A stretch of 22,406 nucleotides of DNA from a virus (taxonomy: Duplodnaviria > Heunggongvirae > Uroviricota > Caudoviricetes), in IMG/VR virus record IMGVR_UViG_2537562020_000008. One strand, given 5' to 3'. This document shows, in pieces, positions 1,273 to 16,635 of this stretch (its first letter is position 1; each line of letters opens with the position of its first letter). The notes below the pieces were generated by a model that saw only the letters and a list, made by a program, of their open reading frames with translations, was not told where the DNA came from and did no database searches. The position numbers and the translations under genes are program-made.

Positions 1273-1554
1273 TTACTGCCAAGCCGCAAACACCTGTCCC
1301 GGCTCATTTCCCAGTTCAGGCGATGGCGGCGGTTTTCCATCCCGTCTATCCGGAGGAAACAACACGATCTCCACTGAAGCAGGTGCCGACGTTGGTTTCG
1401 GCAGACGACGTAACTGCTCAACTATTGCTGCGCACGCCGCGCTCTGGAATTTTCGCCCCGCCGCGCTTATCAGGCTCTTACCAGCAAACGCCCCTTTGTT
1501 GGGGTGTCGCCAGTACGTGTTCACGCTGGGCGGAAAAGGCAGGATCAGCTTCAT
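1273..1554 (-). pseudogene. rusA: RusA-family Holliday-junction resolvase, apparently truncated at the C-terminus by the IS66-family insertion
   Basis: N-terminal MKLILPFPPSVNTYWR and ...FPPDRR resemble RusA (LPWPPSNNRYYR ... PDRRRRD). After DRR the sequence becomes a Pro/Gly-rich tail (DGKPPPSPELGNEPGQVFAAWQ) lying where the IS end is expected. Confidence 0.5.
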
Positions 1555-1877
1555 ACTTTCAGGTCCCTCTCATGTAACCAGTGGGTTGCACGCAGCCTTG
1601 CGTTTTCCTCACCGGCAAGCAGTGCGCGGATAATCCCGACCGCCTCGCTGTCGTCGTCCTTCCCCGCGGTATGAAGCGTTATCCCCCGGGCCACGCCACG
1701 CTTTATCGTGATGACGCCTTTTTTCTCCAGTGCGCGAAGATGCTCCACCGCTGCATTCACCGAACGGTATCCCAGCATGGTTGCCACCTCCTGATTGGTT
1801 GGCGGGAAGCCACGTTCTTTCTGATAAGAAATCAGCATATCCAGCACCTGCTGCTGGCATTGAGTTAACGTCGTCAT
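1551..1877 (-). CDS. LexA-like N-terminal DNA-binding domain protein (winged HTH), lacking the S24 peptidase domain
   Basis: 108 aa; TQCQQQVLDMLISYQKERGFPPTNQEVATMLGYRSVNAAVEHLRALEKKGVITI closely parallels the LexA N-terminal domain ([52 protein letters not shown]). ATGA-type overlaps with both neighbours. Confidence 0.6.
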   Translation of the reverse strand: MTTLTQCQQQVLDMLISYQKERGFPPTNQEVATMLGYRSVNAAVEHLRALEKKGVITIKRGVARGITLHTAGKDDDSEAVGIIRALLAGEENARLRATHWLHERDLKV

Positions 1878-2527
1878 GCCGCCATCTCCCTGACCAGTTT
1901 TTCCGCCTGCTGGCGAACCTGCGCCAGAAACGCCTCACCACATGCCTCAAGTTCATCGCGCCCGATGTAGCTGATTGCCGGTCCCTTCCAGGTCTTGTCA
2001 AAAACAGCAATAGCACCAGCGAAAAAAGCTCCTGTCGGTACCTGCTTCTCGTCTTTCGGGATAAACCAGACAGGCAGTTCAAAACCAATACGCCCGCGAA
2101 TAAAAGCAATATGATCTGCATCTTCCGGCCACCACACTTCGCTGGTGGCAGCTTTGATCAGGAAAACATAGCGCCCGCCCTTATCACGCATGGCACTGGC
2201 ATGTTTCATGATGTAACGCATGCCGGTGATGTATTGCCCCTCATGCTGACTGGCGCGGCTGTATGGGGGATTACCAAAGGCAGCACCTTTAAGCTCCGCA
2301 AGACGTTCTGACCAGTCATGCGCCAGCGCGTTGTCTTCCGCCGTGTAATACGCGGCACATTTGGCGTTATCACCGTCAGTGAACAGATCCAGAACAAACG
2401 GGCCAAACAGGGTGTTAATTCCCCAGAAAATGTTGTCCGGCGTGCGCCACTGATCGCCCACTTCCTTCAGTTCATGGGCTGGTTTGTTCCGCAGTTCCAC
2501 CAGCGCCTGGCAATATTTATTACTCAT
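1874..2527 (-). CDS. Phage-type DNA N-6-adenine methyltransferase (Dam family)
   Basis: Contains the NPPY catalytic motif (AAFGNPPYSR) in a context typical of phage Dam-like methyltransferases. Start taken at the ATG at 2527, which shares one nucleotide with the upstream gene stop (TAATG); a longer ORF to 2560 exists. Confidence 0.8.
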   Translation of the reverse strand: MSNKYCQALVELRNKPAHELKEVGDQWRTPDNIFWGINTLFGPFVLDLFTDGDNAKCAAYYTAEDNALAHDWSERLAELKGAAFGNPPYSRASQHEGQYITGMRYIMKHASAMRDKGGRYVFLIKAATSEVWWPEDADHIAFIRGRIGFELPVWFIPKDEKQVPTGAFFAGAIAVFDKTWKGPAISYIGRDELEACGEAFLAQVRQQAEKLVREMAA

Positions 2528-3021
2528 TAAGCCCCCACGTAATTCCCTGACAGATACCACTCTTCACCCGATGCAGCGCGCTTGCTGCTTTTCCGTAAGC
2601 ACCGCTCACGACGCGTCAGAAAATTGTTTCGTTCTGGCTGGGAGTGGCTTTCACGGAATGCCGCCATCCACACGGTTGCAGCACGACGGTATAAGCCCCT
2701 GGACTCCAGTTCTTCCGCCTGGCGGGTCAGGCACAAAATCACACGGGGATCGTTAGTGCCGACATAGAAATTGCGCACAGGTCTGGTTTCACGAACTGGT
2801 TGTGGTTCCGGTTCCTGCGCTCTCTCAGTCAGGCGCGGGAAATGTCTGCGTGTATCTCCTTCACAACGGTGAGCCACACGCCCACTCTGACGTAACTTGC
2901 TTGCTGACTGCAGAACGCGCTGCCGTGAGTAACCGGCAAAAGCATCCGCAATATCTCCGGAAGTACAGCCCGGATGGGCTTCAATGAATTTCTGAACGTC
3001 ATTCAAAAGACTCATGCTCAC
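2527..3021 (-). CDS. Prophage regulatory protein: N-terminal winged-helix-like region and C-terminal PerC-like motif (family uncertain)
   Basis: 164 aa; C-terminal AEELESRGLYRRAATVWMAAF recalls the PerC/Pch signature from memory. GTGA overlap with the upstream replication gene. Confidence 0.45.
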   Translation of the reverse strand: MSMSLLNDVQKFIEAHPGCTSGDIADAFAGYSRQRVLQSASKLRQSGRVAHRCEGDTRRHFPRLTERAQEPEPQPVRETRPVRNFYVGTNDPRVILCLTRQAEELESRGLYRRAATVWMAAFRESHSQPERNNFLTRRERCLRKSSKRAASGEEWYLSGNYVGA

Positions 3022-3959
3022 CCCCTGAATCCTGCCGGGATCTGGCTGTAGTCCACGTTGTCGTAACTGGCTTTGAAGTACGGGTCTTCGCGTTTTTCGG
3101 TGTACGTGCTGACGGACGGCGATAAGCGCAGGGAAAGCTCATCCCATTTTTCCCGCAGCTTCGACGGGCTGAGCACGTTACGGCACCAGAACGGATCGCG
3201 ACTGACGCGGCTGTACATCTCGCAGATTTGTTTATGAGTACGACCATCCTGCACACACATCAGGCGAATTTCGTTTGCCCAGGCTGTCCAGTTCGGTTCT
3301 TTGGGACGAACCACCTCGCCGTCACATTCGGCGGCCTGCTCGTACAGGGCGATGATTTTTTTCCAGAGCCACTGTGCGCAGGTCAAATCATCCTGCGTTC
3401 CCCACTGGCGCTTTTTAGGGCTGAATACAACCGCATCAGGATGGCGAGTTAAAAACTCCTGTTCAGCCGTCTGCGTGTCCGGTTGCGAAGCGTCCGGACG
3501 AGAAGTTTTTTTATCTGACGGATCATGTTTTGATTTTACTGACGGATCCCCGCCAGATTCTGACGGGTGAAAACCCGCTTTTTTGCCAGATTTCGACGCA
3601 TCAAATTTTGACGGGTCAGATTTTGATGCGTCAGATTTTGACGGGTCAGAATCTGACAGTTGAGAAAATGCCGCTGCCTGAAGCTTCGCAACGTTAAGCT
3701 GATAAACATTCGACGCATTGCGGTTACCCTGGCGACGCGCCTTACGCGTTAACCAGCCTTCTGCTTCCAGCCGTGCGATAGCCGTTCTGACGGTACTCAT
3801 CCCCGCGCCAATCTGACGGGCAATGGTTTCAATTGATGGCCAGCACACCCCTTCGTCATTACTGAAATCAGCCAGGCGGGCCATAATTGCCACGCTGGAT
3901 AATTTCATGCCTGACGCTGCGCAACCATCCCATACATAGCCGGTTAATTTAGTGCTCAT
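3018..3959 (-). CDS. Phage replication initiation protein (lambda O-like organiser: N-terminal HTH, repeat-rich linker, C-terminal domain)
   Basis: 313 aa; N-terminal HTH (WPSIETIARQIGAGMSTVRTAIARLEAEGWLTR); central repeats SDSDPSKSDASKSDPSKFDASKS encoded by the iteron DNA; sits downstream of cro and the CII-like gene as in lambdoid phages. Confidence 0.75.
   Translation of the reverse strand: MSTKLTGYVWDGCAASGMKLSSVAIMARLADFSNDEGVCWPSIETIARQIGAGMSTVRTAIARLEAEGWLTRKARRQGNRNASNVYQLNVAKLQAAAFSQLSDSDPSKSDASKSDPSKFDASKSGKKAGFHPSESGGDPSVKSKHDPSDKKTSRPDASQPDTQTAEQEFLTRHPDAVVFSPKKRQWGTQDDLTCAQWLWKKIIALYEQAAECDGEVVRPKEPNWTAWANEIRLMCVQDGRTHKQICEMYSRVSRDPFWCRNVLSPSKLREKWDELSLRLSPSVSTYTEKREDPYFKASYDNVDYSQIPAGFRG
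3513..3664. repeat. Iteron array (about 8 copies of a ~15-bp unit, core TGACGG/TGATGCG) inside the replication gene; putative phage origin
   Basis: Seen directly: attttgacgggtcag / attttgatgcgtcag / attttgacgggtcag / aatctgacagttgag in tandem at 3605..3664, with more degenerate copies at 3513..3604 and an A/T-rich stretch at about 3500..3512. Confidence 0.7.
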
Positions 3960-3968
3960 GACCGACCT

Positions 3969-4307
3969 CTATTTCCCTGAATTTACGACGAAACTGTTCG
4001 AGCGGACTGAAGCACTCATGCTCATAGCCTTCGCGGAGGTAGATAACCCGTTGTGTTTCCGGTTCCCAACGAATGACTCTGACGGGCACTCCGTAGTGAT
4101 CTTTGAACCAGCGGTTAACTTGTCGCAAAGGACTGTCTCCTTCTGCCGGTTGAAATCACCCACAGCCCACTCTGCAAAGCTGTGGGTTACAATTTCCCTG
4201 TCACCTGGTACATTTACTGCATAGCAATACTCCACCTTCGCTTTTCCACCCGGTACAGGAAGCGCAATCAGTTGCGAGCGACGGTAGTGTGTTGTTAAAC
4301 TGTTCAT
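3969..4307 (-). CDS. Hypothetical prophage protein (112 aa)
   Basis: ATGA overlap with the upstream CII-like gene supports translation. An alternative frame with a good RBS and TTG start near 4127 also exists, so the gene model is uncertain. Confidence 0.4.
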
Positions 4308-4855
4308 GCGTTAGTTTCTCCACAGTCACGACACGCCACGGCGCCCGGAGCTGCACACTCGCGGGCGTCATTACTTTCTGAAATGCAAAAGATTTTGTAG
4401 ACCAGTGCTGCATGCTCCTGCAGCTTCGAAATTGAGAGATATAGCTCGTCGTTAATTGCAGTTTTCTCATGCGGTTCCACTACACCGTCTTCGATTGCTG
4501 AACGAATCTGTTTTGAATAACTGCCGATCTGTTCAATGACCTCCAGCAGGCGTTGGTTGATATCGGCGTTGTCCACATCCTCGACATCAGGAAGAGACAC
4601 AAAGACGCCATTTGCAGACTGCGCCACAGCGTCAGCAATGAAGTGAGTTCCACCAGCACGTTGCAAAATCATTGCCCATCCCAGCGGGAAAATCTGATCG
4701 CCATCGGCACGAAGGCGGTTAAATAATGCGTTCTCTGTTACATCCAGCCAGTCAGCAGCTTCAGCGTACCCCCCCGGCAACGCTGCGATAGTTTTTCTGA
4801 CAGCTTTCACGTACCACTCAGGCTGTTTTTCTACTTTCCAGTGATGCTTACCCAC
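4304..4855 (-). CDS. Phage regulatory protein, CII-like (CP76 family) - tentative
   Basis: 183 aa immediately downstream of cro in the rightward operon; overall pattern ([35 protein letters not shown]...) resembles CP76-type CII regulators as I recall them. Confidence 0.5.
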
Positions 4856-5108
4856 GGTTCACCTCCTGTTCCTGTGGTTTAAACCCATTCTGGTTTTGGC
4901 TAGATTGAAAACGTGCCGGATAAAGAATCTGCATTTCGCTGACTTCACCCTTAAAAAAATTGGCTAAACGTTCTGCAAGCTCGATAGATGGAATCTGCTC
5001 CAGCCTCTCAATACGACTCAACGTCGCTGGATTGACTTGAACACCCGCAGCAACATGCTGCAAAGTGAAACCATGCGCCTTACGCACATTTCGTAATGGT
5101 GATTGCAT
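4848..5108 (-). CDS. cro: Cro-like HTH (XRE-family) repressor
   Basis: 86 aa; HTH motif GFTLQHVAAGVQVNPATLSRIERLEQIPSIELAERLANFF; divergent from the cI-like gene across an operator-rich 97-bp spacer. Confidence 0.8.
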   Translation of the reverse strand: MQSPLRNVRKAHGFTLQHVAAGVQVNPATLSRIERLEQIPSIELAERLANFFKGEVSEMQILYPARFQSSQNQNGFKPQEQEVNRG

Positions 5109-5205
5109 ACGCCCTCCAAATATTGCGCGTTATGCATGTTATTTCACGCAATTATTTTGCGCAAGTTGATTTGCTTATCACGCAATAAAGAAATGTAATA
5201 AACGC
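5109..5205. promoter_or_regulatory. Immunity-region operator/promoter region (OR-like) between cro and cI
   Basis: Seen directly: ttgcgcgttatgcat (5123..5137), cacgcaattattttgcg (5144..5160) and ttgcttatcacgcaa (5171..5185), sharing TTGC/GCAA half-sites. Confidence 0.7.
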
Positions 5206-5898
5206 ATGAACATAGGAAACCGAGTCAGACAACTTCGCCAAGCGAAGAACATGAAAATCGCCGATCTCGCTGAAGCGATAGGAGTAGATGCGGCGAACAT
5301 CTCGCGCTTAGAAACGGGTAAGCAAAAACAATTTACCGAACAAACACTGAGTAATATTGCCAAGAGCTTAGGTGTTGATATTGCTGATCTCTTTACCTCT
5401 GCCCACAAAAGTAATACTGTATATAAAAACAGTAATAATGAGGATGTTGCGCAGGTGAAGGATGTGTTCCGTATTGAAATGCTGGATATCAGTGCCAGTG
5501 CGGGAAATGGCCTTATCCAGGGCGGTGATGTCATTGATGTGATTCATGCCATCGAATACAGAACTGATAATGCTGTATCAATGTTCGGCGGACGACCAGC
5601 CAATCACATCAAAGTTATCAACGTTCGTGGGGACAGTATGTGTCCAACCATTGAGCCCGGAGATCTCATCTTCGTTGATGTCAGCATCAATCAGTTTGAT
5701 GGTGATGGTATATATGTCTTTGGTTTTGATGACAAAATATACGTTAAAAGACTTCAAATGATTCCTGACAAACTGCTGGTGATTTCTGATAACCAGATTT
5801 ACCGTGAATGGGGAATTACTAGCGAAAACGAACACCGATTCATGGTCTTTGGAAAGGTCTTAATCAGTCAGTCGCAAACCCTTAAGAGACATAATTAA
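5206..5898 (+). CDS. cI: cI-like prophage repressor (N-terminal XRE HTH + C-terminal LexA-like S24 peptidase domain)
   Basis: 230 aa; HTH (MKIADLAEAIGVDAANISRLETGK) and C-terminal S24-type region (VRGDSMCPTIEPGDLIFVD ... IYVKRL). Confidence 0.9.
   Translation: MNIGNRVRQLRQAKNMKIADLAEAIGVDAANISRLETGKQKQFTEQTLSNIAKSLGVDIADLFTSAHKSNTVYKNSNNEDVAQVKDVFRIEMLDISASAGNGLIQGGDVIDVIHAIEYRTDNAVSMFGGRPANHIKVINVRGDSMCPTIEPGDLIFVDVSINQFDGDGIYVFGFDDKIYVKRLQMIPDKLLVISDNQIYREWGITSENEHRFMVFGKVLISQSQTLKRHN
5415..5434. promoter_or_regulatory. Near-consensus SOS (LexA) box embedded in the cI coding sequence
   Basis: Seen directly: TACTGTATATAAAAACAGTA versus consensus TACTGTATATATATACAGTA; CTGT-N8-ACAG core intact. 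Confidence 0.5.
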
Positions 5899-5917
5899 CC
5901 TCAATATCCCATCCATC

Positions 5918-5942
5918 GGCCACCGAAAGGTGGCTTTTTATT
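5918..5942 (+). terminator. Rho-independent terminator downstream of cI
   Basis: GGCCACC-gaaa-GGTGGC hairpin followed by TTTTTATT, 20 nt after the cI stop. Confidence 0.75.
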
Positions 5943-5952
5943 ACCTATAAAT

Positions 5953-5989
5953 TTGCATATCTCGCAAATATCACTTGCATGTCTCGCAA
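5953..5989. promoter_or_regulatory. OL-like operator pair (two 15-bp TTGC-N7-GCAA sites, 22 bp apart)
   Basis: Seen directly: ttgcatatctcgcaa (5953..5967) and ttgcatgtctcgcaa (5975..5989), same half-sites as the cro/cI intergenic sites. Confidence 0.55.
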
Positions 5990-6175
5990 TTTAATTTTAT
6001 CTTTTGTTCCAGACCAACTACAGGATTACAACAAAATCTGGTTGCAACACGGTGCATGTGTCGTAAGCAGTCAGTAAATGTCAAAAACGAACAGGCAGGA
6101 CGCCCACGAAGTAGCCGCCTGGGGCATATGAAGTCCAGGATGATTCGTTGAGTCATGTTGTGCCACTAGGCACTC

Positions 6176-6472
6176 ATGTTAAAGCAGGTGTATGAAATGA
6201 AAGTCCAGATTTTAAACAATAACTGTGAAGTCGTTTGGTCATACGACATAGCCGCCCCTGTAGATCAGAGCGGCGATAGCTGGACCAATGGGAAACATCA
6301 GATTATGGCTGGAGTTGTGTTCTCTTTACGCCGTGCTTTGGAACAGGCTGAAGTATTTCCATCAGACCCTGAATGGAAATGGCCTTTTTCTATTTGTCCA
6401 AATTCGGAGAGCACATTTCAGAAAATTGGTCAGAAAGTCGCACTCGAAGAGCATCAGCCAACTGTTTCCTGA
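6176..6472 (+). CDS. Hypothetical moron protein (possible start at 6196, MKVQILNN...)
   Basis: ORF downstream of the OL-like sites at the position occupied by rexAB/sieB in lambdoid phages. Its 3' end overlaps the convergent ORF by ~80 bp, so one of the two may be mis-called. Confidence 0.35.
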   Translation: MLKQVYEMKVQILNNNCEVVWSYDIAAPVDQSGDSWTNGKHQIMAGVVFSLRRALEQAEVFPSDPEWKWPFSICPNSESTFQKIGQKVALEEHQPTVS

Positions 6473-6635
6473 TTTTTTCAGGTAACTCGTCGGCATCGCA
6501 GAAACAACAACGCTCGATCATGTTGAAAGCCGATTCGTAGAACTGTTTCTGCTGAGTGTCGCTGAGACAGGAAAAGAGCGACGTTACGATGATTTTATTA
6601 ATTGCATTATCAAGTTCTTTTTCATCAAAAGTCAT
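6390..6635 (-). CDS. Hypothetical small Cys-containing protein (81 aa)
   Basis: Good RBS (aaaaggaaaatcaaATG); contains CCFC; no family recognised. Confidence 0.45.
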   Translation of the reverse strand: MTFDEKELDNAINKIIVTSLFSCLSDTQQKQFYESAFNMIERCCFCDADELPEKIRKQLADALRVRLSDQFSEMCSPNLDK

Positions 6636-7072
6636 TTGATTTTCCTTTTATGTATACGGGCTTAAAAGGATACCACCGAGCCTGAAGTGGTGAAAAGACA
6701 GGCACATAACAGCTAAGTATTTTCAACCAAAGAGAATCCTTAGCGTTGTGGTGAATGCGGCTCAGCGCACGCGGGTTAAGGTTGAGGCTGACAGTCGACC
6801 TTCTGTGGATACCCACCCGTCTGGTGTGCAACCTTCGCCAGGCACCGGGAGGCACCCGGCACCACAACTTTATGCTGTGTGTAGTCCTGGCGGTACCAGT
6901 TTGTACCCTTGCTTCCGGCTGGTACCGTCCTTTTTACAAAACAGAGAAGAGCATCACCGGACGACGGGCTCATAACCCAATCCATCCGGGCGGCTGCCAC
7001 CGCAGGTGTTCTTCTCTGTTTTGTGGAGAAACTAATCGGCCTTGCAGGGTCGATATGATGAGGAGCAGCAAA

Positions 7073-7447
7073 ATGGCTAGCGAACGCAGTACTGATGTAC
7101 AGGCATTTATCGGGGAGCTGGACGGCGGCGTATTTGAAACCAAAATCGGCGCAGTTCTCAGTGAAGTCGCTTCCGGTGTGATGAACAGGAGGGACAGCTG
7201 ATAGAAACAGAAGCCACTGGAGCACCTCAAAAACACCATCATACACTAAATCAGTAAGTTGGCAGCATCACCCAAACTCTCATATGTTCGCCCGACTAAC
7301 CGCGGGAAAATTTCCGAAGAAGACACCACCGAAACGCCGATGTATGTCAATCGCGGTGGTCGCCTGACTATTCTGCAGGAAGACCAGGGACAATTACTGA
7401 CTCTTGCCGGTGAACCTGACGGAAAACTCCGCGCAGCAGGTCATTAA
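7073..7447 (+). pseudogene. Prophage gene split by a ~90-bp IS1-end remnant (5' part 7073..7182, 3' part 7273..7447)
   Basis: RBS gaggagcagcaaaATG at 7073; 5' fragment MASERSTDVQAFIGELDGGVFETKIGAVLSEVASGV stops inside the IS1-derived segment; 3' fragment KLSYVRPTNRGKISEED...GKLRAAGH resumes in the same frame after it. Confidence 0.4.
7183..7272 (-). mobile_element. IS1 left-end remnant (IRL plus ~65 bp; the rest of IS1 absent)
   Basis: Reverse complement reads GGTGATGCTGCCAACTTACTGATTTAGTGTATGATGGTGTTTTTGAGGTGCTCCAGTGGCTTCTGTTTCTATCAGCTGTCCCTCCTGTTCA, matching the IS1 terminus and start of insA as I recall it; similarity ends near 7183. Confidence 0.8.
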
Positions 7448-7512
7448 TATCGTTCTTAATTAACTGATTATTTATCTCATCACTGAATATCTTTATATAG
7501 TGAGGACTTATT

Positions 7513-8337
7513 ATGTCTCAGAACTTAGACGCAACCGCAATTAATCAAATCCATGCCCTTATTTCTGCTCAGGGTGTTAATGAAATTATCAGTAAGATTG
7601 GTGCCGATGCTGTGGCATTGCCTGAGAATTTCCGCATTCATGATCTGGAAAAATTTAATTTAAATCGCTTCCGTTTCCGTGGTGCGCTTTCCACTGCCAG
7701 CATCGATGACTTTACCCGTTATTCTAAAGATCTTGCAGATGAAGGCACCCGCTGCTTTATCGATGCTGATAATATGCGAGCCGTCAGTGTGCTTAACCTG
7801 GGTACTATTGATGAACCAGGTCACGCAGATAACACCGCCACTCTCAAACTGAAAAAGACAGCACCGTTCTCTGCCCTGTTGTCTGTTAACGGCGAGCGTA
7901 ACTCCCAGAAGTCACTGGCAGAATGGATTGAAGACTGGGCCGACTACCTTGTGGGCTTTGATGCTAATGGTGACGCCATTCAGGCAACAAAAGCGGCTGC
8001 GGCGGTCCGTAAAATCACGATTGAAGCAAACCAGACCGCTGATTTTGAAGACAATGACTTCAGCGGCAAACGCTCTCTGATGGAGTCTGTCGAAGCGAAG
8101 ACCAAAGACATTATGCCAGTGGCATTTGAATTTAAATGCATTCCGTTTGAAGGTCTGAAAGAACGTCCGTTTAAATTACGCCTCAGCATTATCACTGGCG
8201 ATCGTCCGGTACTGGTTCTGCGCATTATTCAGCTGGAGGCGGTGCAGGAAGAAATGGCTAACGAATTTCGTGATCTGCTTGTTGAGAAATTCAAGGACAG
8301 CAAAGTAGAAACCTTTATTGGTACTTTCACCGCCTGA
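7513..8337 (+). CDS. yfdQ: YfdQ-like prophage protein (DUF2303 family)
   Basis: 274 aa, the length of the CPS-53 prophage protein YfdQ, and followed by YfdR/S/T-like genes in the same order. Confidence 0.7.
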
Positions 8338-8465
8338 TTTCATTACTGCAAATGCCCCTGCGGGGGCATTTATGGAAACGTAATTAACTCAATAATCGCC
8401 TGATGGCGAGGGTTTTCTTTAACCAAAATTCAGCGCGGTGCAGCGCATATAAAGTGGAGAACAAA

Positions 8466-9002
8466 ATGTCATTTATTAAAACTTTTTCCGGGAAGCATTT
8501 TTATTATGACAAGATAAATAAAGACGACATCGTTATTAACGATATCGCGTTTTCCCTTTCAAATATCTGTCGCTTTGCCGGTCATCTTTCGCACTTCTAC
8601 AGCGTCGCCCAACATGCGGTTCTTTGCAGCCAGCTGGTGCCGCAGGAATTTGCTTTTGAAGCGTTAATGCATGATGCAACAGAAGCGTATTGCCAGGACA
8701 TTCCCGCACCACTGAAACGCCTTCTTCCTGACTATAAACGGATGGAAGAAAAAATAGACGCCGTAATCCGTGAGAAATACGGGTTACCTCCTGTTATGAG
8801 CACGCCAGTGAAATATGCCGATCTCATCATGCTGGCAACCGAACGCCGCGATCTCGGGCTTGATGATGGCTCTTTCTGGCCTGTACTGGAAGGTATCCCG
8901 GCAACAGAGATGTTCAACGTGATTCCACTGGCACCGGGCCATGCCTACGGGATGTTTATGGAACGCTTTAACGAGTTATCGGAGTTACGCAAATGCGCAT
9001 GA
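8466..9002 (+). CDS. yfdR: YfdR-like HD-domain protein (5'-deoxynucleotidase family)
   Basis: 178 aa from the ATG at 8466 (RBS GGAGAA); HD-like motif region (FAGHLSHFYSVAQHA ... ALMHDATEAY). The ORF track extends upstream to 8403. Confidence 0.7.
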   Translation: MSFIKTFSGKHFYYDKINKDDIVINDIAFSLSNICRFAGHLSHFYSVAQHAVLCSQLVPQEFAFEALMHDATEAYCQDIPAPLKRLLPDYKRMEEKIDAVIREKYGLPPVMSTPVKYADLIMLATERRDLGLDDGSFWPVLEGIPATEMFNVIPLAPGHAYGMFMERFNELSELRKCA

Positions 9003-9355
9003 ATGTTTTCGAAATGGAAGGGTTTCTTCGTGGGAGATGTGTACCGCGAGATCTGAAAGTAAATGAAACAGATGCTGAATACCTGGTGCGTAAATTCGAT
9101 GCGCTTGAAGCTAAATGTGCAGCACAGGAAAACAAAGTAATACCAGTGTCAACTGAACTGCCACCAGCAAATGAAAGTGTTTTGTTATTCGATGCTAACG
9201 GAGAAGGCTGGCTAATTGGCTGGCGTTCTCTCTGGTACACCTGGGGACAAAAAGAAACCGGAGAATGGCAGTGGACATTTCAGGTCGGGGACCTTGAAAA
9301 CGTCAATATCACTCACTGGGCAGTAATGCCAAAAGCACCGGAGGCTGGAGCATAA
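8993..9355 (+). CDS. yfdS: YfdS-like prophage protein
   Basis: 120 aa; overlaps the yfdR stop; Trp-rich C-terminus (WLIGWRSLWYTWGQKETGEWQW). Confidence 0.65.
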   Translation: MRMNVFEMEGFLRGRCVPRDLKVNETDAEYLVRKFDALEAKCAAQENKVIPVSTELPPANESVLLFDANGEGWLIGWRSLWYTWGQKETGEWQWTFQVGDLENVNITHWAVMPKAPEAGA

Positions 9356-9660
9356 TGACCACTTTTACCGACAAAGAACTGATTAAAGAAATTAAAGAGC
9401 GTATCAGCAGCCTTGACGTGCGAGACGATATTGAGCGCCGTGCTTATGAAATCGCACTCCTATCTCTGGAAGTAGAACCAGATGAACGCGAAGCTTATGA
9501 ATTATTCATGGAAAAGCGTTTCGGTGACTTAGTAGATCGTCGGAGAGCAAAAAACGGCGATAACGAATACATGGAATGGGATATGACTCTCGGTTGGATC
9601 GTCTGGCAGCAACGAGCTGGTATCCATTTTTCAACAATGTCACAGCAAGAGGTGAAATAA
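9355..9660 (+). CDS. yfdT: YfdT-like prophage protein
   Basis: 101 aa; start coupled to the yfdS stop. Confidence 0.65.
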   Translation: MTTFTDKELIKEIKERISSLDVRDDIERRAYEIALLSLEVEPDEREAYELFMEKRFGDLVDRRRAKNGDNEYMEWDMTLGWIVWQQRAGIHFSTMSQQEVK

Positions 9661-10010
9661 TGGAGCCATACAGCCTCACACTCGATGAGGCCTGTCATTT
9701 TCTCAAGATATCCAGACCGACTGCCATTAACTGGATACGCACAGGGCGTCTTCAGGCAACACGCAAAGATCCCACTAAGAATAAATCTCCTTACCTCACA
9801 ACACGACAAGCCTGCATTGCGGCTCTTCAGTCTCCGCTGCATACTGTCCAGGTGAGCGCGGGTGATGGCATAACAGAGGAAAGAAAATGTCACTCTTCCG
9901 CAGAGGTGAAATATGGTACGCCAGTTTCACATTGCCGAACGGTAAAAGATTTAAACAGTCTCTTGGAACAAAGGACAAAAGGCAGGCGACAGAACTCCAT
10001 GACAAGCTAA
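9660..10010 (+). CDS. xis: Excisionase (P22 Xis-like HTH)
   Basis: [40 protein letters not shown]... matches the P22-type Xis pattern; start shares a nucleotide with the yfdT stop (TAATG); 3' end overlaps the int start. Confidence 0.75.
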
Positions 10011-11050
10011 AGGCTGAAGCATGGCGGGTCAGCAAACTTGGTGAAATACCTGATATAACGTTCGAGGAAGCGTGTGTCAGGTGGCTTGAAGAGAAAGCAC
10101 ATAAAAAATCACTGGACGATGACAAAAGCCGGATCGGATTCTGGCTTCAACATTTCGCAGGAATGCAACTAAGAGACATTACTGAATCAAAAATTTATTC
10201 AGCAATGCAGAAAATGACGAACCGGCGTCATGAGGAAAACTGGAAACTCAGGGCAGAAGCATGCAGAAAAAAAGGGAAACCTGTTCCAGAATACACGCCA
10301 AAACCAGCGTCCGTTGCAACGAAGGCTACGCATCTTTCATTTATAAAGGCCCTACTAAGAGCCGCAGAGCGTGAATGGAAAATGCTGGATAAGGCACCAA
10401 TTATTAAAGTGCCTCAACCAAAGAATAAACGGATCCGCTGGCTGGAGCCCCATGAAGCACAAAGGCTGATTGATGAATGTCCGGAGCCATTAAAGTCTGT
10501 TGTTGAATTTGCACTGGCAACAGGCTTAAGACGCTCGAACATCATCAACCTTGAATGGCAACAAATAGATATGCAGCGCCGGGTGGCATGGATAAACCCG
10601 GAAGAGAGTAAATCAAACCGCGCAATCGGCGTTGCGCTGAATGATACTGCATGTCGCGTTTTGAAAAAACAAATCGGGAATCATCACCGTTGGGTATTTG
10701 TGTACAAGGAAAGCTGTACCAAACCAGACGGAACGAAAGCGCCAACAGTAAGGAAGATGCGGTATGACGCAAACACAGCCTGGAAAGCAGCGCTGAGACG
10801 GGCTGGTATTGATGATTTCAGATTTCACGACTTGAGACACACCTGGGCAAGTTGGCTGGTTCAAGCCGGAGTCCCGTTGTCAGTGTTACAGGAAATGGGA
10901 GGCTGGGAGTCTATCGAAATGGTTCGTCGATATGCTCACCTTGCACCTAATCACCTTACCGAACACGCACGGCAAATAGACTCGATCCTGAACCCATCGG
11001 TCCCAAATTCGTCCCAGTCAAAAAATAAGGAAGGTACTAATGATGTGTAA
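9887..11050 (+). CDS. int: Tyrosine integrase, P22-type
   Basis: 387 aa; [47 protein letters not shown]... and C-terminal [41 protein letters not shown] (catalytic R..HxxR..Y); abuts a tRNA-Thr 3' fragment. Confidence 0.9.
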
Positions 11051-11064
11051 CTTATTGATTTAAA

Positions 11065-11113
11065 TGGTGCCGATAATAGGAGTCGAACCTACGACCTTCG
11101 CATTACGAATGCG
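11065..11113 (-). other. att core: 3' 49 nt of a tRNA-Thr (thrW-type, anticodon CGT) gene; the 5' half of the tRNA is not present here
   Basis: Reverse complement CGCATTCGTAATGCGAAGGTCGTAGGTTCGACTCCTATTATCGGCACCA equals the anticodon-loop-to-CCA segment of tRNA-Thr(CGT) as recalled; the sequence 5' of it is not tRNA-like. Confidence 0.8.
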
Positions 11114-13411: not shown

Positions 13412-13624
13412 CTAGTGAGCTATTTTATAGTCCCTTAATGCATTTTTAAGTAACTCCGTTTGCTCATCAGCATCATCATAATTATAAATTCCCGTAGCAG
13501 AATAATACTCTTCGATGCATAGAATATTTATCAATGGTTCACAAATCTCTTTAATAAAATCCTTGTTGTTATCGGCAAAAATAATTTTTATTCCTTCCAA
13601 AACAAAGCTATTATAATCAGCCAT
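13412..13624 (-). CDS. Hypothetical small acidic protein (70 aa)
   Basis: Strong RBS (AGGAGGTGGATAATG); acidic composition; no family recognised. Confidence 0.55.
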   Translation of the reverse strand: MADYNSFVLEGIKIIFADNNKDFIKEICEPLINILCIEEYYSATGIYNYDDADEQTELLKNALRDYKIAH

Positions 13625-13693
13625 TATCCACCTCCTTACAGGTGTTTAGTGGAAGCGTCAGTTAACGTTACCGCGCTAACTGACGCGCCTAAA

Positions 13694-16517: not shown

Positions 16518-16584
16518 ACAGGCGGTAGCCGATCAGCCTCGCAGAGCAGGACTCCGTTGAGCAGCTCAGCTGCGAATAAGGGAA

Positions 16585-16635
16585 GGTAAAGTAGAAGCAC
16601 CGTTTACGGTGGGCCTACTTTACATATCCTGCCCT
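16585..16635. other. oriT-like site: 9-bp inverted repeat around an inner palindrome, followed by a MOBP-type nick motif ATCCTGC
   Basis: Seen directly: GTAAAGTAG-aagcaccgtttacggtgggc-CTACTTTAC then acatATCCTGCcc at 16626..16632; lies ~70 bp upstream of mobC. Confidence 0.4.

Follow-up and report, generated by a model that had tools for sequence, protein, structure and literature searches.

Predicted repressor operators of the SfII/mEp460-type prophage immunity module

The stretch of DNA analyzed here (hereafter the window; 22,406 nucleotides, IMG/VR virus record IMGVR_UViG_2537562020_000008, Caudoviricetes) carries a phage immunity region in which 15-bp inverted repeats of the minimal form TTGC-N7-GCAA surround the repressor gene cI. 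The gene map corresponds to that of phage lambda in reverse orientation (Table 1), and the divergent cro and cI genes flank a short control region, as is typical of the lambdoid layout. This region would contain the right operators (OR), the early right promoter (PR), and the promoter for repressor maintenance (PRM), and the left operators (OL) and the early left promoter (PL) would lie beyond the cI terminator; the genes past the predicted PL occupy the plus strand up to int. Positions 1339-11110 of the window match SfII, SfIV, and SfV-type prophages as far as the integrase. Between positions 4800 and 6200, identity to Shigella phage SfII (KC736978) in its immunity region reaches 99.3%, and that to mEp460, PhiR47_1, and several Stx2 phages is ~90%. 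The SfII record names cII, cro, cI, and the terminator, and the operators are not annotated in it.

Table 1. Features of the immunity region and adjacent genes; offsets are given from the cI ATG, and match scores refer to the matrix described in the text.
Feature	Position	Strand	Sequence or elements	Remarks
O-like replication gene	3018-3959	-		
CII-like gene	4304-4855	-		Pfam Phage_CP76, phrog_101
cro-like gene, 86 amino acids	4848-5108	-		open reading frame; XRE-type helix-turn-helix (Pfam HTH_3, 5e-10); Cro in SfII
Immunity module	4884-6082			cro, OR, cI, terminator, OL/PL; no similarity to SfV, flanks common to both
Site in cro	5073-5087		ATGCGCCTTACGCAC (minus strand GTGCGTAAGGCGCAT)	cro codons 8-12; centre at -126
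Control region			97 bp	between divergent cro and cI
OR-A (OR1-like)	5123-5137		TTGCGCGTTATGCAT	one-mismatch match; 17.4 bits; -76
Predicted PR, -10	5136-5141	-	TAACAT	TAA.AT invariant in 9 ungapped relatives; 17 bp from invariant TTGCGC
Candidate weak operator, middle of OR	5150-5164			-49; TTGCGCAA palindrome as perfect half-site
Candidate weak operator, middle of OR	5157-5171			-42; TTGCGCAA palindrome as perfect half-site
Predicted PR, -35	5159-5164	-	TTGCGC	inside palindrome TTGCGCAA (5157-5164); TTGCGCAAGT invariant in all relatives
OR-C (OR3-like)	5171-5185		TTGCTTATCACGCAA	exact match; 19.0 bits; -28; centre variable
Predicted PRM	5171-5199	+	-35 TTGCTT (5171-5176), -10 TGTAAT (5194-5199)	17-bp spacer
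cI, 230 amino acids	5206-5898	+		helix-turn-helix plus S24 autopeptidase
cI intrinsic terminator	5918-5940 (hairpin 5918-5935)	+	7-bp stem, 5 G-C pairs, T run	annotated in SfII
OL2, promoter-distal	5953-5967		TTGCATATCTCGCAA	exact match; 19.3 bits; ~+755 in relatives
OL1	5975-5989		TTGCATGTCTCGCAA	exact match; 17.9 bits; ~+778 in relatives
Predicted PL	5975-6003	+	-35 TTGCAT (5975-5980), -10 TATCTT (5998-6003)	17-bp spacer; reads away from cI

The CI protein is 100% identical to that of SfII and has the architecture of a phage repressor, with a DNA-binding domain (Pfam HTH_3, 1e-11) followed by a self-cleavage domain (Peptidase_S24, 6e-19). Its GDSM and VKRL motifs align with UmuD, and the motif positions give Ser144/Lys181 as the catalytic dyad and Ala99-Gly100 as the candidate cleavage site; with these residues, prophage induction should be RecA-dependent. 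The best that solved structures offered were weak matches to XRE proteins and UmuD, and no close template is thus available.

Exact copies of TTGC-N7-GCAA occur three times in the window (0.86 expected from shuffled sequences), and all of them are located beside cI. The Poisson chance of at least three exact matches in the ~197 bp of non-coding DNA flanking this gene is ~7e-8. The same three sites constitute the top family of direct repeats in an unbiased repeat search, and the inverted repeat is therefore shared by OR and OL and rare elsewhere. The class of one-mismatch matches shows no window-wide enrichment (13 found, 15.6 expected), hence the site at 5123-5137 counts only through its position and its conservation in relatives. 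The two OL sites differ by one base and lie 22 bp apart from start to start (2.1 turns), with OL2 beginning 18 bp past the terminator hairpin. This pair was described correctly in an earlier sequence-only reading of the same DNA, which had also proposed three related sites between cro and cI. Two of the three, OR-A and OR-C, are retained here, whereas the remaining one, CACGCAATTATTTTGCG, is present at 5145-5161 but has a different architecture, as discussed below. The list in that reading was also incomplete, since it overlooked the conserved fifth site at 5073-5087.

The set of relatives comprised phage records with CI proteins 96, 83, 71, and 67% identical to that of the window, 80 IMG/VR contigs with 99-100% identical CI, and 8 bacterial genomes with CI identity from 100% to 66% (seven at 66-92%), the latter representing Citrobacter, Pseudescherichia, Klebsiella, Trabulsiella, and Buttiauxella. 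Site offsets were compared in 11 relatives with 66-96% identical CI from Escherichia, Salmonella, Klebsiella, Citrobacter, Trabulsiella, and Buttiauxella. Their control regions align nearly gap-free, and the sites recur in all 11 at fixed offsets from the cI ATG (-126, -76, -28, ~+755, and ~+778). Thus, the comparison with phages carrying homologous repressors that the sequence-only reading had suggested bears out its motif. The outer half-site bases are kept across relatives, and the central bases are free to differ. The site at -76 has the form TTGCG-N5-(C)GCAT in every lineage, the site at -28 that of TTGC-N7-GCAA, and the OL pair is found just past the cI terminator with the sites 22-24 bp apart.

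A 15-column matrix trained solely on the sites of the relatives (consensus TTGCGTATTACGCAA) was used to scan the whole window. The five best matches start at 5953, 5171, 5975, 5123, and 5073, all inside the 1.2-kb cro-cI module, and the sixth is much weaker; the first four score above the 95th percentile of the shuffle maxima. Variation between phages with identical CI is distributed in the same way: 41 OL haplotypes contain 4 singleton changes in 16 half-site columns and 34 changes in 14 centre columns. Nearly invariant half-sites with a hypervariable centre are the signature of a dimer-binding site whose centre is not contacted. Since N7 never varies while the distance between adjacent sites does (22-24 bp at OL), TTGC-N7-GCAA is the unit. 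The everted arrangement GCAA-Nx-TTGC was considered as the true operator and rejected, as its spacing varies from 7 to 9 bp at OL among relatives and N7 is constant.

Several departures from the common arrangement were observed among the relatives. In the phages with identical CI (L008-L088), the OL2 centre, especially 5959-5962, and the OL2-OL1 spacer, together within 5957-5974, are the most polymorphic columns of the region, where up to more than 9 of the 41 haplotypes differ, and the half-sites, PL spacer, and -10 hexamer are nearly fixed; this could reflect either relaxed constraint or selection tuning the affinity of OL2. One contig (L029, IMG/VR 2529293213_000044) has a single OL site and lacks the 22-bp unit between the repeats, a loss that recombination or slippage would be expected to cause, OL1 and OL2 being nearly identical. 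In Klebsiella spallanzanii (L093) cro is frameshifted and contains stops, and in a Pseudescherichia metagenome-assembled genome (L092) it is unrecognizable; cI is intact in both, as are the three sites with offsets of -126, -76, and -28. L092 has no OL sites after cI, and a strong site (21 bits) is located 920 bp upstream. These two are probably defective or rearranged prophages that have kept immunity.

The sites are inherited together with the cI/cro allele. When window positions 3501-7500 were compared with the SfV locus by blastn, homology stopped at 4883 (87% identity) and resumed at 6083 (96%), so that the cII side and the downstream DNA are common to both phages. Between these flanks the cro, cI, and control DNA of SfV is unrelated to that of the window; it carries repeats of the ATGTACC type, and TTGC-N7-GCAA is absent from it. 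The homology limits delineate the immunity module (Table 1), and all five sites lie inside it. CI homologs at the ~40% identity level (Turner, Bp96115, 3W, Fraca, and Stx2_EH2246) have another helix 3 and other repeats, and the motif is absent from them, whereas the clade with 66-96% identical CI keeps it. The earlier proposal that the sites define the likely immunity specificity of the prophage is therefore supported by comparison: the motif goes with the cI/cro allele and is missing from the SfV module. The paper describing the SfIV genome mentions that cI and cro of SfII differ from those of SfV and SfIV (PMC3851460).

The promoters in Table 1 were placed by conservation, and their positions are accordingly predictions. 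The operators overlap pairs of hexamers conserved at 17-bp spacing that correspond to PR, PRM, and PL, all of which are weak matches to the promoter consensus. The final two bases of the PR -10 hexamer and the predicted start of transcription fall within OR-A, whose terminal base is always T, not A, because it is part of that hexamer. The left half of OR-C is identical to the PRM -35 element, as the left half of OL1 is to that of PL. The TGTAAT hexamer of PRM is invariant and is separated by 6 nt from the cI ATG in all relatives except L094 (7 nt). No Shine-Dalgarno sequence precedes the cI ATG, and the cI mRNA is predicted to be leaderless, starting near 5206. The -10 hexamers of PL in the relatives are TATCTT, TATCAT, and TATGGT, as well as TGTAAT in L004, at a fixed distance of 17 bp after the TTGC of the site.

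The fifth site lies within the coding region of cro, approximately at +49 on the predicted PR transcript. It was not included in the training set and is the fifth-best match in the window (11.2-11.8 bits). At the same offset it is found in 11 of the 11 relatives (8-19 bits), including a perfect TTGCGATTTTCGCAA in L007 and L095, and it persists in L093 and L092, in which cro is a pseudogene and unrecognizable, respectively. On the sense strand of cro, site positions 3 and 12 coincide with the third positions of codons 8 and 11 (Leu/Val and Ser/Ala). Both of these critical bases are an invariant G in 10 of 10 sequences, while the third-codon bases at the non-critical site positions 6, 9, and 15 vary freely. 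An invariant third base is found in only 4 of the 52 eligible cro codons, and the hypergeometric probability that both critical ones are among them is 0.0045. By this sequence comparison, the site is held by synonymous-site constraint at the DNA level. Inspection of the sequence revealed no acceptable promoter hexamers overlapping the site on either strand. A further repressor site downstream of PR in the early right transcription unit, O_FR (operator far right), was reportedly described for HK022 by Carlson and Little in 1993; the site considered here differs in lying ~49 nt into the transcript within the cro coding sequence, and its function is putative.

Another segment of cro with invariant third-codon bases was observed at 5100-5108 (TGATTGCAT; codons 1-3, minus strand), where ten divergent sequences agree in the third bases of codons 2 and 3 (ATGCAATCA). 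Read on the plus strand, the segment is TTGCAT, a left half-site without a partner. The invariance may be due to a translation-initiation constraint or to an isolated half-site.

Only half-sites were found in the middle of OR. The string CACGCAATTATTTTGCG has the everted form GCAA-N5-TTGC, and only its TTGCG end is kept in the relatives. This right end belongs to the invariant palindrome TTGCGCAA, and conservation of the left end (ACGCAA) is limited to the clade with at least 92% identity. As an operator of the type proposed in the sequence-only reading it was thus discarded, being everted and conserved at one end. A PurR box was considered for the same string. The PurR box has the form CGCAA-N4-TTGCG with a central CG, and this assignment was rejected because CACGCAATTATTTTGCG has N5 with TTATT and a left part that is unconserved outside the clade of closest relatives. 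The two candidate weak operators of this region (Table 1) score less than 3 bits in the window; the one at -49 reaches 10-14 bits in L005, L091, L092, L007, and L095, and the one at -42 reaches 15 bits in L091 only. A repeat search also detected the tandem 13-mers TTATTTCACGCAA and TTATTTTGCGCAA in this area. Isolated perfect half-sites between the strong OR sites are ACGCAA at 5146-5151 and the TTGCGCAA palindrome.

With respect to the proteins that would recognize these sites, helix 3 of CI has the form xANxSRxETGKQK throughout the clade with 66-100% identity, and that of Cro in the clade is A(T/N)LSR(I/V)ER. In the coordinates of the Pfam HTH_3 profile, A30-N-I-S-R34-L-E36 of CI aligns with A28-T-L-S-R32-I-E34 of Cro. 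The matching pattern A-x-x-S-R-x-E fits the reading of the same half-site by both proteins, and Arg34 and Arg32 may be tentatively assigned to the G of TTGCG by analogy with the 434 repressor.

Taken together, these observations make it highly probable that the SfII/mEp460-type immunity module has the 15-bp inverted repeats TTGCG-N5-CGCAA as its operators. CI, which combines a 434-like XRE helix-turn-helix with a LexA/UmuD-like S24 self-cleaving domain, would bind the 15-mers as a dimer, and the cognate Cro very probably recognizes the same sites. In a lysogen, CI at OL1 would occupy the -35 element of PL, aided by OL2 located 22 bp upstream, and thereby keep the early left operon off. At OR-A it would cover the edge of the PR -10 element and the transcription start, so that cro, cII, and the replication genes are off, and the site in cro would serve as an auxiliary operator, perhaps by forming a roadblock, by taking part in looping, or as an anti-virulence element. 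The coincidence of OR-C with the PRM -35 element would allow a high level of CI to limit its own synthesis and Cro to shut off cI. Induction would follow from self-cleavage of CI at Ala99-Gly100, catalyzed by Ser144/Lys181, upon SOS activation of RecA.

A number of observations weigh against this model or restrict what can be read from it. A simple promoter scan called none of PR, PRM, and PL, which were missed because of their weak consensus matches. No clear third site was found in OR at lambda-like spacing and no lambda-like OR2 could be placed: instead of the three adjacent operators about two turns apart of a lambdoid OR, there are two strong sites separated by 48 bp (4.6 turns), a distance ill-suited to simple side-by-side cooperativity. 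OR-A and OR-C have similar scores, and hence the order of occupancy and the choice between positive and purely negative autoregulation of cI are unreadable from the sequence. The score of the site in cro is only ~11 bits in the window, which is close to the average of the best scores obtained with shuffled windows; being so modest, it leaves this site supported by conservation and not by strength. A BLASTP comparison of the N-terminal domain of CI with Cro gave no significant alignment, and the comparison of their helices was made via the profile coordinates. Finally, the literature search gave no binding, footprint, or transcript work on this repressor.

Several other explanations of the repeats were weighed. 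The TTGC tetrads are identical to the half-site of lambda CII, which is TTGC in the arrangement TTGC-N6-TTGC and has been quoted as such for epsilon34 (PMC2629481). As a CII-like gene of the Phage_CP76 and phrog_101 families adjoins cro, the repeats might be taken for sites of a CII-type activator. Their geometry is different, however, since they are inverted with an invariant N7, and lambda CII sites are direct repeats with N6 that straddle the -35 element of a promoter directed towards cI or int; they are located at the predicted PR, PRM, and PL and not at a position resembling the promoter for repressor establishment (PRE). The CII protein encoded here comes from a different family than lambda CII, and SfV has the same cII allele (87% identity at the DNA level up to 4883) but lacks the sites. 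We therefore regard recognition by CII as very improbable. It is just as hard to believe that the sites are mere -35 elements of the TTGCxx type with chance symmetry and no dedicated protein. OR-C, OL1, and the palindrome at PR do coincide with predicted -35 hexamers, but OL2 and the site in cro are conserved although they overlap no predicted promoter. The right half (C)GCAA, 11 bp away from the -35 element, is conserved like the left half while the bases between them vary, and the sites vanish when the cI/cro allele is exchanged. A third view, in which Cro alone or another factor recognizes the sites and CI has its targets elsewhere in the module, is slightly better placed and still improbable. 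In its favor, the assignment of the sites to CI is by sequence rather than by experiment, and the first positions of helix 3 are not the same in Cro and CI. Against it, OL adjoins cI and is far from cro, as expected for the control of PL by CI; the sites persist with intact cI where cro is a pseudogene (L093) or missing (L092); and no other repeated motif of comparable conservation is present in OR or OL.

A more substantial alternative, which we consider possible if rather unlikely, accepts the 15-mers as operators and replaces the OR1/OR2/OR3 logic of lambda with a higher-order CI assembly, in which the sites at -126, -76, and -28 and the half-sites between them form one unit by wrapping or looping. 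The spacings of the PR-side sites, 50 and 48 bp (4.8 and 4.6 turns), are unlike those of lambda, and they are regular and kept in all relatives. The same view is favored by the lack of a lambda-like OR2, by the isolated perfect half-sites between the strong sites, and by the DNA-level constraint on the site in cro. On the other hand, 48-50 bp corresponds to non-integral numbers of turns, and OL shows an ordinary two-turn pairing. The spacing nevertheless leaves room for a different cooperative logic. Returning to the 15-mers as operators of CI and Cro, it may be proposed tentatively that the switch works unlike that of lambda, without activation from OR2, and that three strong PR-side operators ~49 bp apart, one of them in cro under synonymous-site selection, act together with the half-sites via looping, wrapping, or a roadblock.

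The operators of lambda have a 17-bp TATCACCGC-type consensus, those of 434 are ACAA-N6-TTGT, and those of P22 are ANTNAAG-N4-CTTNANT. None of these strings fits OR or OL: in the best matches 9 of 17 specified bases are wrong for lambda, 2-3 of 8 for 434, and 4 of 10 for P22. The sequence-only reading was thus right in separating the repeats from these three types, but their architecture, which it called unusual, is a classical one, a 15-bp inverted repeat with 4-5 conserved outer base pairs and a free centre in the style of 434. In 434, too, the outer 4 bp of the operator form its conserved, contacted part around a free centre, Cro and repressor have key helix-3 residues in common, and the DNA-binding fold belongs to the same class (the 434 repressor, 1per, is a weak PDB match at E = 0.008). 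The half-site is different, and the operators considered here have one more central base pair. Contacts of the 434 repressor are made by Gln28, Gln29, and Gln33, and the alignment places Ala, Ala, and Arg at these positions of helix 3. The best 434-type match in OR, with 2 of 8 specified bases wrong, is in an everted position.

Features shared with lambda include the divergent arrangement of cI and cro around operators, the repetition of the motif past cI at PL, the overlap of the sites with the predicted PR, PRM, and PL, a predicted leaderless cI mRNA from PRM, and a CI protein with an S24 self-cleaving domain. The differences concern the sites themselves (15-bp TTGCG-N5-CGCAA repeats instead of the 17-bp lambda type), the XRE/434-type DNA-binding domain of CI, an OR with two strong sites 48 bp apart where lambda has three at 23-24 bp, an OL with two sites, and the extra site inside cro. 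In addition, rexAB is absent between cI and OL, and no N was reported for SfII; SfII, SfV, and SfIV are described as having no N, CII, and cIII homologs (PMC3851460). An OL with only two sites is also known for the Stx2 phage 933W (PMC5977221), and the module studied here likewise occurs in Stx2 phages, although the repressor and operator sequences of 933W are different and its OR has three sites. The BAA2326 repressor from the same paper is of the lambda-like type and bears no relation to the CI considered here.

The module (positions 5060-6010) was found in 1039 of 5426 complete Escherichia coli genomes (19%), 297 of them at 99% identity or more and 587 at 90-95% (the mEp460-like allele). 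It is also present in the Stx2 phages Stx2a_1447, WGPS2, 1720a-02, and phiSTEC1575, and 446 IMG/VR stretches encode a relative of CI. The prediction of a distinct immunity group holds in that the module is distinct from lambda, 434, and P22, but the group is not newly seen, being the type of the sequenced SfII and common in E. coli. RefSeq labels its proteins only as "XRE family transcriptional regulator" or "helix-turn-helix domain-containing protein", and a literature search with the site strings, motif notations, SfII, mEp460, and Stx-phage repressors returned no description of these operators. Conceptually, the system is an expected variant of the lambda paradigm. The consensus, the six positions, and the three predicted promoters nonetheless constitute a concrete and testable operator map for a very common and apparently uncharacterized repressor type that occurs in SfII, mEp460, and several Stx2a/Stx2k phages. 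The map can be used for predicting homo- and hetero-immunity among these prophages and for designing reporter or induction constructs, and it provides a naturally occurring case of regulatory DNA lying within the coding region of a gene.

Downstream of PL, a structured RNA-like element of 65 nt was detected on the plus strand at 6086-6150, 83 nt past the predicted -10 hexamer. Its core of 27 nt (AGGCAGGAcGCCCACGAAGTAGCCGCC) is near-invariant, and both helices covary strongly: the outer one as ACGAA/TTCGT, CCACC/GGTGG, and TCATC/GATGG, and the inner hairpin as CCTGG/CCAGG, CCGGT/ACCGG, CCACC/GGTGG, and others. In 28 sequences 97% of the cells are paired, compared with 20-51% in slid controls, and 82 double-sided changes were counted against 25 in shuffles (a value reached in 0 of 500). 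No match was found in Rfam 15 even at E <= 1, the core string was not found in searchable papers, and there is no similarity to the PL-nun (putL) region of HK022. The window contains one copy (89 bits; next best match 9.5 bits), hence the two-copy put model does not apply to the part of the PR operon that the window covers (5 kb). The element is found in more than 120 IMG/VR contigs and also in phages of other immunity types, namely SfV, SfIV, ST64B, ZF40, SPN3UB, and mEp237. At 70 of 103 loci, the core is preceded by a cI-like open reading frame (of at least five types) whose end lies at a median distance of 128 nt. The element may be a cis-acting, N-independent leader RNA of the early left operon, possibly involved in antitermination, and it may be a more novel object in this stretch than the operators.

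No tRNA genes were found in the window. Two other RNAs were identified by Rfam above the gathering score, a PtaRNA1 antitoxin RNA at 13618-13690 on the plus strand (48.6 bits) and a traJ-II RNA at 16535-16634 on the minus strand (93.1 bits). Both lie past the prophage match, which ends near 11110, and point to a second mobile element next to the prophage.

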